A DNA stretch of 64,000 bases, taken from the IMG/VR virus record IMGVR_UViG_3300026097_000980, positions 91,509-155,508 of that record; one strand, given 5' to 3'. The notes below the pieces were generated by a model that worked only from the letters and a program-made list of their open reading frames with translations, had not been told where the DNA came from and ran no database searches. The position numbers and the translations under genes are program-made. Source of the DNA: a virus. Every line of letters begins with the position of its first letter. Position 1 is the first letter of the stretch. Shown here piece by piece: positions 4,118-54,446 of this stretch.

Positions 4118-4133
4118 AGACTATAAATACATC

Positions 4134-17946: not shown

Positions 17947-17999
17947 TATTCGCTCCATCAATTATTTAAAGGTTAATCTCTTATAATAAACTGTTAAGT

Positions 18000-18446
18000 T
18001 TACCCGCGACGCATTTTACTGATCATTTCTGCTTCTTCTTGATTAATAACAGGAACAGCATTACTTTTATGCATAGTAGCCACTCCCTTGATGAGTGTGC
18101 CTGTATATTCTTTCTTTGGTTGTGCAAGTGCATTTCCTGTGCTCAGTTCGCCACTGGGGATATGTGATCCGCTGTCTCTGCGATAGCCTTTTGGTTGCCA
18201 GTCGAATGTTTTTACTTCTGGTGCTGTCTGATACTGCACAGGCTTGCGGCGTTCTGTTTCGCCATGCACCCAAGCAACATATTGATCAATGTCCATGCAG
18301 AGATCGTGTTGATGTGCCTGCTTCATTCGCTTGTTGTAATCGCGAAGTTCTGCTTGATACTTTTTTAACTGCGTTTTTGTAAGTTTGCTTTTCTTAGGCT
18401 TGGCTGTTCGTAAAGTAGACAAACCTTTTTCGAGATGCATTGTCAT
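18000..18446 (-). CDS. Hypothetical phage protein
   Basis: SD-preceded MTMHLE start; own TTGACA-17-TAATAT promoter at 18507-18479. Confidence 0.7.
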   Translation of the reverse strand: MTMHLEKGLSTLRTAKPKKSKLTKTQLKKYQAELRDYNKRMKQAHQHDLCMDIDQYVAWVHGETERRKPVQYQTAPEVKTFDWQPKGYRRDSGSHIPSGELSTGNALAQPKKEYTGTLIKGVATMHKSNAVPVINQEEAEMISKMRRG

Positions 18447-18510
18447 ACGACACTCCGTAGTTGTTAAACTATACAACTATATTAAACTCGTGTTGTAGAA
18501 ATGTCAACCG

Positions 18511-18558
18511 TTATTGTATTTGTGATTTCATCCACTGCCAGTATTCTGAATCAGTCAT
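18511..18558 (-). CDS. 15-aa peptide MTDSEYWQWMKSQIQ downstream of attenuator
   Basis: Strong SD GGAGAAAGGAA immediately after the terminator. Confidence 0.4.
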   Translation of the reverse strand: MTDSEYWQWMKSQIQ

Positions 18559-18572
18559 TTCCTTTCTCCATT

Positions 18573-18691
18573 AAAAAACCCCGGAACATTTCTATCCCGG
18601 GGTTAAGTCTAGCACAATAGAGCCTACTCCCCGGGAGAGTATCCTAATAGTAGTAGACTGCTGTGTGCGATTGTCTTCATATTATTATTTA
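18573..18691 (-). promoter_or_regulatory. Leucine-sensing transcription attenuator (leader peptide MKTIAHSSLLLLGYSPGE, 18680-18624)
   Basis: CTA CTA CTA TTA codon run; antiterminator UCCCGGGG; terminator AACCCCGG/CCGGGGUU plus U tract. Confidence 0.75.
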
Positions 18692-19278
18692 CTCAAACTT
18701 TTTAAAAATTGAAATGCTTCTTTAGATTTAAGATAATCTAAACAATTCTCCGGTGTTGATTCAAAATAAGGATCTTGATCTTCACCGAGGTCATTAATAT
18801 CTGGTTCTTGCCACCATTTTTCTATAACACAATCATTAATAATTGCAGAATAACGCCAGCTACGCATACCAAAACCAAGATGCGACTTATCGACTAACAT
18901 TCCCATTCTACGAGTAAAATCACCATTACCGTCTGGGATAAATTTAATGTTTTGAACGCTTTGATCAATCATCCACTTACGCATTACAAAGGTGTCGTTT
19001 ACTGAAATAACATAAATGTCATCTACGCCTTCGTCAAGAATCTGTTGATAGTTTTCTTCAAATCCTGGAACTTGAAATGTTGAACATGTAGGTGTAAATG
19101 CTCCAGGTAAAGAAAATAACACAATTCTTTTATTTGCAAAAATATCTTCGGTTGTAAATTCTTTCCAATCAAACGGATTTTCACCGCCGTTAGTTGTGTC
19201 TACATAAGTGATAGGATGTCCGTCAGTGCGGACACGATAATGAAATGTTGTAAACGGAATTTGTATGCCTTCTTTCAT
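18685..19278 (-). CDS. Peroxiredoxin (Prx5/redoxin family)
   Basis: FSLPGAFTPTCS, SVNDTFVM, GFGMRSWRY. Confidence 0.93.
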   Translation of the reverse strand: MKEGIQIPFTTFHYRVRTDGHPITYVDTTNGGENPFDWKEFTTEDIFANKRIVLFSLPGAFTPTCSTFQVPGFEENYQQILDEGVDDIYVISVNDTFVMRKWMIDQSVQNIKFIPDGNGDFTRRMGMLVDKSHLGFGMRSWRYSAIINDCVIEKWWQEPDINDLGEDQDPYFESTPENCLDYLKSKEAFQFLKSLSK

Positions 19279-19529
19279 GTGTGTGTTTCTCCTTGATAAG
19301 CACGAAAAAGTTTTGAACCTAATGGACTGATTGGTTCTTGAGGTTTCGCTTTTTTCCCTGTCCTTTCTTCTACCATCATTAACAGTCTGGTAGCGTGTCC
19401 TCGTTTTCTATATAGAGGATTCACAAAAATATATTCTATCTCTGCGTGTGTGTTATACCTAACAAAAGCAATAGTGGTGTTAGGATTACGAAAAGTGATG
19501 ACGCCATCACCGTAGATGACGTCCCACAT
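19275..19529 (-). CDS. Minimal GNAT acetyltransferase
   Basis: IFVNPLYRKRGHATRLL motif A; start set at MWDVIY. Confidence 0.7.
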   Translation of the reverse strand: MWDVIYGDGVITFRNPNTTIAFVRYNTHAEIEYIFVNPLYRKRGHATRLLMMVEERTGKKAKPQEPISPLGSKLFRAYQGETHT

Positions 19530-19536
19530 TACACAG

Positions 19537-19971
19537 TTAGGCGTTTTCTTCGTTGTATGCATCCAAAGTCTTCTTGAACTTGTTAGCATGTGAACGCTCT
19601 GCCTTAGCAAGAGTTTCAAACCAATCTGCAATCTCGTCGTGGCCTTCGTCACGAGCTGTCTTTGCCATGCCCGGGTACATGTCCGTGTATTCATGTGTTT
19701 CACCAGCAATAGCACTTTCCAATGCTTCTACAACATTGCCTGCCGCTAGACCGGTTTCTGGATCACCCGAGCCACCTTGAATTAGATATTCCATGTGTCC
19801 GTGTGCGTGACCAGTTTCGCCTTCTGCTGTGTTACGGAATACATTGGCTACTTCTGGAGCACCTTCAATGTCTGCCATGTTTGCAAAATACAAATAACGA
19901 CGGTTGGCTTTTGACTCACCTGCGAAAGCATCTTTCAATGCCTGTTCTGTTTTAGAACCTTTAAGACTCAT
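19537..19971 (-). CDS. Rubrerythrin (no rubredoxin domain)
   Basis: [37 protein letters not shown]. Confidence 0.93.
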
Positions 19972-20003
19972 AGTTTCCTCCTGTTGTTGTAAACTATTAA
20001 ACT

Positions 20004-20090
20004 ATTGTAGTAGATATTTACTATTAATGCAACCGTAAAAATTGCAAAAATCTATGTTATTTTTCTATGGGTGTGTTAGTTAAAATCTAT
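20004..20090 (-). promoter_or_regulatory. Sigma70 promoter TTGCAT-17-TACAAT with upstream OxyR-like box (20054-20090)
   Basis: ATAG-N7-CTAA-N7-ATAG-N7-ACAT versus OxyR consensus ATAG-N7-CTAT-N7-ATAG-N7-CTAT. Confidence 0.65.
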
Positions 20091-20103
20091 TATCTTTACA
20101 GAT

Positions 20104-20131
20104 AAAAAAAGGCCGCCGAAGCGACCTTTTT
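20104..20131 (-). terminator. Intrinsic terminator
   Basis: GGTCGC-ttcg-GCGGCC-T7 on minus strand. Confidence 0.8.
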
Positions 20132-20144
20132 ACTAGATTCTATA

Positions 20145-20486
20145 TTAGAATGATAATTTGATGCCTACAGTTGTTTCTGTACGCTCAACATCCTCGTTTA
20201 GATCTGTGTTGACATATGCTGATACACTGTCTGTGATTGATTTACTAACGTCAACTTCAATGTCTTCAAGTGTAAAATCTGCACCAGCATCTGTGTCATG
20301 TAGATTGATGCTTGTTGCAACTTCTACGCCGTATGGTAAACCTGTAAGGCTGTTGCCTAATACAAAGTTATTAATTTCACCTTTCGCTTCGTGCTCAAGT
20401 GCAATCGATGTTCCAAGGTCTAGTCCTTCAGCTGATACTGCTGTTGCAGATACGGCAAACATTGCCGCGATTAACGTTTTAGTCAT
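20145..20486 (-). CDS. Small outer-membrane beta-barrel-like protein
   Basis: Signal peptide, alternating beta strands, C-terminal VGIKLSF. Confidence 0.55.
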   Translation of the reverse strand: MTKTLIAAMFAVSATAVSAEGLDLGTSIALEHEAKGEINNFVLGNSLTGLPYGVEVATSINLHDTDAGADFTLEDIEVDVSKSITDSVSAYVNTDLNEDVERTETTVGIKLSF

Positions 20487-20540
20487 TTTATTTCCTTCTG
20501 TGTGTGATATTGTTTAGATATCTAAGTATAGTTATAAAAG

Positions 20541-20562
20541 AAAAGCACCCGAAGGTGCTTTT
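20541..20562 (-). terminator. Terminator of tmRNA
   Basis: AAAAGCACC-cgaa-GGTGCTTTT. Confidence 0.8.
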
Positions 20563-20878
20563 CTGACTTTTGGATTACAAGGCAGTCAACCCCGAAGCCT
20601 CATGCGGCCAGTGCGAATGTTTCATCATTTGCAGTTATTTTATTTTGCTTCTACGACCGGGTATACTCCCAATCCTAACGGCTTTCACATTGCCGGTAAC
20701 TCCACTCGCCTAATCATCTCGCCGTCGAATCCTTGATCTGCCCCATCATAGATACACCACGTTCTTCTCCTACTATTTCACCTTTCGGTCTACTCTCTCG
20801 GAGTTGTAGATGTATCTATGGTGGAACAGCCGGGAGTCGAACCCGGGTCCGTCAACCTTTCGGTCTGCTTCATCGTTA
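20563..20878 (-). ncRNA. ssrA: Circularly permuted (two-piece) tmRNA, tag ANDETFALAA
   Basis: Acceptor piece with T-arm CCGGGTTCGACTCCCGG and CTGTTCCACCA ending at 20819; 74-nt intervening stem; coding piece GGGGCAG...GGATTCGAC from 20744; G3-U70 pair; tag ORF 20632-20600. Confidence 0.92.
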
Positions 20879-20887
20879 CAGTATTAT

Positions 20888-21172
20888 TTAACTATCTTTT
20901 TTGCTGTCTGTCAAGTCTTCTAATTGCTTTTTTAAATTTAAGACTTGGATATGCAGTAACATGTTTTCCACAACCAATTTAGTCATAGATGCAAGGAGCA
21001 CAACTTTGTCTTCTTCTGTGTACTCTTCTTTATCGAATTGCTCCAGGATAGATGTTCCTATCATTTTAAAGGCTTCGTCTTTGCCTACAGATAATTTATC
21101 CCAAGGAATAGGATCTCCCGATTCCGCTTCTTTAGCGATGTCTACTAATAATTCTAAATCAATTTCTCTCAT
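20888..21172 (-). CDS. Hypothetical protein
   Basis: 94-aa ORF coupled to upstream gene. Confidence 0.6.
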   Translation of the reverse strand: MREIDLELLVDIAKEAESGDPIPWDKLSVGKDEAFKMIGTSILEQFDKEEYTEEDKVVLLASMTKLVVENMLLHIQVLNLKKQLEDLTDSKKDS

Positions 21173-54359: not shown

Positions 54360-54446
54360 GCCAGTATGGTGGAATTGGTAGACACAATGGACTTAAAATC
54401 CATCGCCCGCAAGGGTATCCCGGTTCGAGTCCGGGTACTGGTACCA
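54360..54446 (+). tRNA. tRNA-Leu(TAA)
   Basis: ATGGA-CTTAAAA-TCCAT arm, long variable arm, CCA. Confidence 0.93.

Follow-up and report, generated by a model that had tools for sequence, protein, structure and literature searches.

A candidate leucine-codon transcription attenuator behind a peroxiredoxin gene of a marine phage

The locus and its gene-start signal

The window analysed here covers 64,000 nucleotides of an IMG/VR viral record of 155.5 kb, which is estimated to be 42 % complete and derives from a marine phage with a G+C content of about 40 %. On its minus strand, a run of rubrerythrin, GNAT and peroxiredoxin genes ends with the peroxiredoxin (Redoxin/AhpC-TSA) gene at 18685..19278 (Pfam PF08534, 8.9e-22), whose phage relatives are annotated as peroxiredoxin. 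The stop codon of this gene (TAA, 18687-18685) lies inside a TAAATA box (18686..18691). Further along the same strand follow a leader ORF, a hairpin, a terminator, a 15-codon ORF, a TTGACA promoter and a 148-aa gene. The leader ORF, MKTIAHSSLLLLGYSPGE, occupies 18624..18680 with its ATG at 18680, 5 nt behind the box, and comprises 18 codons and a UAG stop (18626-18624); codons 9-12, CUA CUA CUA UUA (18645..18656), are the candidate control codons. The intrinsic terminator (18573..18604) consists of a 12-bp stem, a GAAA loop and U6, with the hairpin at 18604-18577 and the T-run extending to 18573. Behind a GGAG (18569-18566) lies the 15-codon ORF, MTDSEYWQWMKSQIQ (18511..18558). A sigma-70-like promoter, TTGACA-17-TAATAT (18479..18507), then precedes the next gene and marks the boundary of the element. 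The 148-aa gene (phrog_27048, 18000..18446, ATG at 18446) is followed by a SleB-like endolysin gene (ATG at 17958) with a TAAATA-N4-ATG start of its own. The first-pass annotation had listed the TAAATA box with its 5-nt spacer, the leader with its leucine codons, the U6 terminator, an 8/8 pairing of a leader segment with the terminator arm, the SD-led 15-aa ORF and a tRNA-Leu(UAA) elsewhere in the window (54360-54446), all of which are present. It had overlooked the TTGACA-17-TAATAT promoter between the 15-aa ORF and the next gene.

The region upstream has features of its own. A small GNAT acetyltransferase gene (19275-19715, minus) lies between the rubrerythrin and peroxiredoxin genes. A phage tmRNA (20539-20905, minus), 2 kb upstream of the candidate ribosome-stalling device, scores as the permuted/betaproteobacterial type with the tag ANDETFALAA, and this type is a possible clue to the host. 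Sequence identity to two related contigs, L076 and L002, is uneven at 18685-20121: it amounts to 89-91 % in the rubrerythrin and tmRNA regions and only 71-75 % in the peroxiredoxin gene, while the element behind it is about 93 % identical to L076. This mosaic divergence suggests allele exchange at the peroxiredoxin gene.

The TAAATA box belongs to a signal that recurs across the phage genome. Where 2.5 occurrences of TAAATA-N5-ATG would be expected, 15 are seen, most of them at real ORFs; the enrichment of TAAATA ahead of ORFs is about six-fold and peaks sharply 4-6 nt before the ATG. The genes that carry this start signal include one for a 600-aa protein and the endolysin-like gene, whose TAAATA start is also kept in the relatives L076 and L078. 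TAAATA-N5-ATG is a genuine gene-start signal in this phage genome. At T4 late promoters, TATAAATA ends at -6. With this geometry and the 5-nt spacer, the first transcribed base would be the A of the AUG; the leader RNA would thus be leaderless, and the box is probably a T4-late-type promoter with transcription starting at or beside the AUG. Translation of the leader would then begin by a leaderless start or, alternatively, by re-initiation after the peroxiredoxin stop. Examples of TAAATA-N4-6-ATG in the window lie at 17968, 16149, 13852, 6056, 33864 and 45187 on the minus strand and at 4124, 52240 and 61677 on the plus strand; the over-representation of this arrangement suggests many leaderless late-type mRNAs in the phage group.

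Leader/terminator complementarity and its conservation

Region 2 of the leader, the putative 5′ strand of an antiterminator (CU-C-UCCCGGGG, 18629..18639, minus), pairs with the terminator 5′ arm and the apical part (18602-18592). Within it, UCCCGGGG (18636-18629) is complementary at 8/8 positions to CCCCGGGA in the terminator 5′ arm. The 155-kb genome has 14 intrinsic terminators by strict criteria, this one included, and for each the best duplex of the 5′ arm with upstream RNA was sought in a span of 67 nt, 8 to 75 nt upstream of the arm. The leader/terminator-arm duplex reaches -19.6 kcal/mol, compared with -10.5 for the next best of the 14 and a median of -6.4, and a single one of 2000 dinucleotide shuffles of the leader matches it. 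In two further alleles, L076 and L004, the duplex energies are -15.3 and -21.7 kcal/mol, which 62 and 0 of 2000 shuffles reach. The complementarity between the leader and the terminator arm exceeds chance.

Two other sites in the record, both outside the window, carry terminators near small ORFs. A related terminator (G000:C1:87409-87451; L051 1350-1750), 81-92 % identical, follows a 34-aa ORF that stands behind a TTGACA-17-TAATAT placed for a leaderless start, and a tRNA-like sequence, GGTTCGAGTC, lies downstream of it. Considered as a second such switch, this terminator was rejected, its complementarity being at background level (-10.2 kcal/mol). Upstream of phoH (G000:C1 ~33852-33750, minus), TAAATA-N8-ATG opens an ORF of 15 codons, and the 5′ arm of a strong terminator is made up of its final codons and stop; such an arrangement would, unlike the leucine-codon switch, allow the terminator to be melted by the oncoming ribosome.

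Protein-guided and pattern scans recovered only two other alleles of the element, in the marine phage contigs L076 and L004 (L072 and L075 are the same contig as L004). Since each allele is unchanged in 2-9 independent assemblies, an assembly artefact is excluded for all of them. The window and L076 elements are about 93 % identical, and the L004 leader is far more diverged. Common to all three are TAAATA-N5-ATG, the leader hairpin, the terminator, the UAG stop, the SD and the 15-aa ORF. The spacer between TAAATA and ATG differs in sequence (ATAAT or TTTTT) and is constant in length. No SD precedes the leader ATG in any allele. The leader ORF has 18 codons in the window, 17 in L076 and 19 in L004, the changes consisting of in-frame indels inside the leucine run and synonymous changes at codons 3, 4 and 16; the MKTI start is kept throughout, with synonymous third-base changes. 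The first-pass annotation had made conservation of the leucine run a test of its proposal, and the run is kept: it opens at codon 9 in every allele and comprises 3, 4 or 5 leucines (CUA x3; CUA x3 + UUA; UUA CUA CUG CUA CUA), 8 of the 12 codons being CUA. In all alleles three further codons (9 nt) lie between the run and CC(C/U), the first bases of the region-2 core.

The pairing between leader and terminator persists through sequence change. In L004, a C-G pair of the terminator has become U-A and the leader segment carries the matching G-to-A, so that one G-C to A-U change is reflected in the leader as well as in both arms of the terminator; leader segment and 5′ arm form 12 consecutive base pairs including one G-U. 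In L076 the terminator apex is replaced, and the leader, through a C-to-U change, gains 5 bp of new pairing beside a 6-bp GC core. The complementarity thus takes the form of 8+2 pairs in the window, 6+5 in L076 and 12 bp in L004. Across the alleles, 93 % of cells are paired in the register of region 2 and arm, versus at most 60 % when the alignment is slid, and the terminator stem holds three compensatory pairs. Covariation statistics are weak (179/500 and 20/500 shuffles), because there are only three alleles, two of them near-identical; they are consistent with covariation and no proof of it. The same small number of alleles counts against an attenuator.

Downstream of the terminator, the 15-aa ORF is the only part common to all alleles. 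In L004 it reads MTDSEYWQYMKKYIQ, with synonymous changes at Y6, I14 and Q15, and no longer version of it was found at any locus. Immediately behind its stop stands GGTTGACA in all alleles, one base later in the window, and the same motif lies directly ahead of the same gene in relatives without the element. This extended -35 motif occurs in 17 copies in 155 kb and marks places where gene content differs between relatives.

The element is patchy. The closest syntenic relatives, L078 (84 % peroxiredoxin identity), L002 and L001, are without it and pass from the peroxiredoxin gene directly to the promoter; L122 has a plain junction in which a terminator is directly followed by TTGACA. Among 49 loci surveyed downstream of the peroxiredoxin gene, the element was present in L004 only, and further look-ups by peroxiredoxin sequence returned only loci that lack the element or else one of the three alleles in unchanged form. 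An LLLL ORF in L011/L012 was rejected as a leader homologue, being an out-of-frame reading of the next gene.

This distribution invites the main rival to an attenuator: an ordinary PeSL-like junction of terminator and promoter between gene cassettes, in which the two tiny ORFs have no part or go untranslated and the complementarity arises simply because the terminator is GC-rich and nearly palindromic. Composite terminator/promoter cassettes of the PeSL type occur in T4-like phages (PMC2839356, PMC4122927). The element resembles them in placing a stem-loop terminator and an early-type promoter between variable cassette genes, in its patchy occurrence among close relatives and in its boundary at the shared GGTTGACA promoter. 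The next gene also has its own promoter, and the relatives show plain forms of the junction, with the promoter only or with a terminator followed by TTGACA. However, the PeSL described so far consists of a stem-loop and a promoter, and the phage element adds a translated-looking leader, an antiterminator and a micro-ORF; 50 nt with an ORF separate its terminator from its promoter, and one other related terminator exists in 155 kb. Upstream complementarity of this extent is seen at none of the genome's other terminators, and in the three alleles it is kept through sequence change. The ATG, the frame, the position of the leucine run, the stop and the TAAATA-N5 spacing are all retained in the diverged L004, and the changes in the 15-aa ORF are synonymous. 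We regard a plain cassette junction as rather unlikely.

Searches beyond these contigs gave little. A DNA search of GenBank phages with the region found no match. Pattern scans of IMG/VR yielded no hits for the region-2 motif, 22 chance hits plus the contig of L004 for a 16-mer of the terminator apex, and two unrelated hits only for a terminator-plus-SD pattern. A metagenome scan for the 15-aa ORF recovered L076, the contig of L004 and one unrelated hit. In Rfam, no leader family appeared among the matches up to E=10 for 18300-21100. No copy of the element was found in 185,579 prokaryote genomes, where scans gave none and then 13 chance hits, so a host origin is not supported. The idea in the first-pass annotation that the element is a captured host relic finds no backing in these searches, and selection on the pairings likewise speaks against it.

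That the leader is a relic of another sort, the degenerated start of a signal-peptide gene that cassette shuffling left behind, is very improbable. MKTI followed by a hydrophobic run does resemble a signal peptide, and a pattern scan found TAAATA-N5-ATG MKTI...LLL at the starts of SleB-like hydrolases in other viral contigs; these hits match by construction, however, and show no further nucleotide likeness. No longer homologue exists at any locus, and the stop position and the pairings are conserved.

The protector hairpin and folding of the nascent RNA

Minimum free energy (MFE) folds place a protector (1:2) hairpin at 18612..18668 (minus). Its 5′ arm contains the leucine codons, and its 3′ arm runs from the last part of the ORF over the UAG to about 12 nt past it; in the window allele the pairings are GCACA/UGUGC and AGUCUACU/AGUAGGCU. 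The first-pass annotation had proposed a sequestering hairpin from AGUCUA/UAGACU and UACUC/GAGUA. A hairpin is indeed present, but that register is not the MFE one, and AGUCUA/UAGACU is not kept in L004. The energies for the window, L076 and L004 are -20.4, -22.2 and -27.6 kcal/mol with z of -1.4, -2.5 and -4.9, which makes the protector of the window allele weak. L004 has the same topology with a base helix UUUGCCAACA/UGUUGGCAAA in place of GCACA/UGUGC, and there region 2 pairs through UCCUAG directly with CUAGGA, the Leu-Gly codons. CUA/UAG pairing occurs in the protector of all three alleles.

We folded the nascent RNA up to the terminator loop with a ribosome footprint masked out, which extends from the 5′ end to 12 nt beyond the first base of the codon in the A site. 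When this codon is any leucine codon of the run, the leader segment pairs with the whole of the terminator arm in 3/3 alleles. When it is the stop codon, the leader segment is covered and the arm is free, again in 3/3 alleles. When no ribosome is present, L076 and L004 form the protector and have a free arm; the nascent RNA of the window allele instead prefers the antiterminator, and its arm is not free. In the full-length RNA with a stalled ribosome, the terminator remains the MFE structure in the window and L076. Because of this, an attenuator model needs kinetic trapping. A pyrBI-type design is ruled out, because the leader stop lies 20 nt ahead of the terminator and a ribosome at that stop cannot melt it.

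We propose that the element is a phage-borne, ribosome-mediated leucine-codon transcription attenuator of the trp/leu type. Its geometry is shown in silico, and a response to Leu-tRNA is predicted; we hold the proposal to be about evenly balanced. Transcription would probably start at the TAAATA late-type promoter, the RNA beginning with the AUG of the 18-codon leader. A ribosome that reaches the UAG stop would cover CUCUCCCGGGG, allowing the terminator to form and the transcript to end after about 105 nt. A ribosome stalled on the leucine codons (9-12, mostly CUA) would open the protector and leave CUCUCCCGGGG free to pair with the terminator 5′ arm as the arm emerges. RNA polymerase would then continue into the SD-led 15-aa ORF, through the next promoter and into the following gene. 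The ribosome-mediated architecture is supported by its parts, their conservation, the compensatory changes, the excess complementarity and the in silico geometry. Against it stand the lack of an SD, which makes leader translation depend on leaderless initiation or re-initiation, and the folding results for the full-length RNA of the window and L076 and for the untranslated RNA of the window allele.

The same structural evidence would also fit a ribosome-dependent attenuator that reports general translation and not leucine, for which ribosome supply, any stalling or a translation-targeting defence have been considered as inputs. CUA would then be present for its pairing with the UAG-containing arm, and such pairing may indeed explain the choice of codon, given the CUA/UAG pairs in every protector. 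CUA makes up 18 % of leucine codons in phage genes and is not rare, so an argument for it as a rare codon in phage usage fails; moreover, the length of the run varies from 3 to 5. On the other hand, runs of at least 3 consecutive leucine codons are rare (9 in 39,780 codons of long ORFs), and this one is fixed at codon 9 and at 9 nt from region 2, as a codon-specific stall site needs. We find a readout of general translation unlikely.

A lesser rival takes the RNA of about 105 nt, from AUG to U-tract, as the product itself: a phage small RNA, possibly with a dual function, that would act in trans through a conserved 5′ end or loop, the terminator being merely its end. It would carry two hairpins and a U-tail behind its own promoter-like box, and the first 11 nt of the leader are nearly invariant, L004 included. 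Precedent comes from Sinorhizobium trpL, where the attenuator-derived small RNA rnTrpL and the active leader peptide peTrpL are reported to have roles of their own (PMC6614838, PMC7968998); unlike the phage element, that attenuator still controls trpE(G). Yet the two differences within the first 12 nt are third-position synonymous changes, and a small RNA leaves unexplained both the conserved arm complementarity and the SD-led ORF right after the terminator. Although it does not exclude an attenuator, we consider it quite unlikely. The decayed signal-peptide gene discussed above is likewise a lesser rival.

Output of the element and relation to known attenuators

The gene behind the element is the 148-aa gene in the window, a 2OG-Fe(II) oxygenase-like gene in L076 and a different gene in L004, and in every allele it has its own TTGACA promoter. 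The first-pass annotation had suggested surveying which gene follows the homologous leader, and the answer is a different one in each of the three alleles. Because the next gene varies and is separately promoted, the constant regulated part would be the 15-aa ORF plus read-through. The proposal that the switch tunes a SleB-type lysis cluster is not supported, given these findings and the separate TAAATA-N4-ATG start of the SleB-like gene; the 148-aa and SleB-like genes are possible read-through targets and not specific to the element. As the first-pass annotation had noted, no biosynthetic gene follows, the downstream genes being the 15-aa ORF, the 148-aa gene and the SleB-like endolysin gene, and none for leucine or amino-acid synthesis, transport or charging lies downstream of the element. 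That no leucine-related gene is controlled, that the next gene varies and is separately promoted, and that the closest relatives do without the element, counts against a leucine attenuator.

In the leu attenuator of Salmonella, CUA triplets are the control codons (PMC1183508). The phage element resembles the enterobacterial leu attenuator (leuL; Rfam Leu_leader) in its short leader ORF with CUA-dominated tandem leucine codons, its protector hairpin, its mutually exclusive antiterminator and intrinsic terminator and, here in silico, its read-through on stalling and termination on completion (PMC1183508). Unlike leuL, it has no SD and its TAAATA-N5-ATG points to a leaderless RNA; in place of leuABCD there is only the 15-aa ORF and a variable gene with an independent promoter. 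The element also gives no sequence or covariance-model match to leuL. The leuL-type architecture described in the first-pass annotation stands, supported by three alleles with compensatory changes. By homology the phage element is not a member of the leu attenuators, given the missing Rfam match and the lack of a copy in the prokaryote genomes scanned, and it is also without the tie to amino-acid genes that defines them.

With the E. coli trp attenuator the element shares the four-region logic and a terminator that is thermodynamically stronger than the antiterminator, so that the outcome would be kinetic. In the trp attenuator, too, the terminator is more stable even with a stalled ribosome. 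Unlike trp, the phage element has leucine and not tryptophan control codons, the protector of the window allele is weak (z -1.4), and its untranslated RNA is predicted not to terminate by default.

In bacteria, leader-peptide attenuation of amino-acid operons is textbook knowledge, and in open-access papers and preprints we found no example of a phage-encoded attenuator of this type. The setting would be new: the device looks leaderless, resides in a phage and lacks a biosynthetic target. Its purpose might be to sense the charging or integrity of host tRNA-Leu(UAG), gating a 15-aa effector and read-through late in infection, an extension of the attenuator proposal that we consider doubtful and that would turn the element into a viral sensor for the state of host translation. 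The signal could be starvation or a tRNA-cleaving defence. A tRNA-Leu with the anticodon UAA decodes UUA and UUG, not CUA, under standard wobble rules, and in this sensor reading the phage tRNA-Leu(UAA) would not replace the host tRNA-Leu(UAG).

If the element works as built, a virus can monitor the aminoacyl-tRNA supply or the ribosome progress of its host directly, with an attenuator that has no tie to amino-acid metabolism and operates on a leaderless RNA. At about 180 nt the element is compact and testable, and its three natural alleles offer different antiterminator strengths. A further lead is the 15-aa peptide, whose expression the phage would gate tightly.
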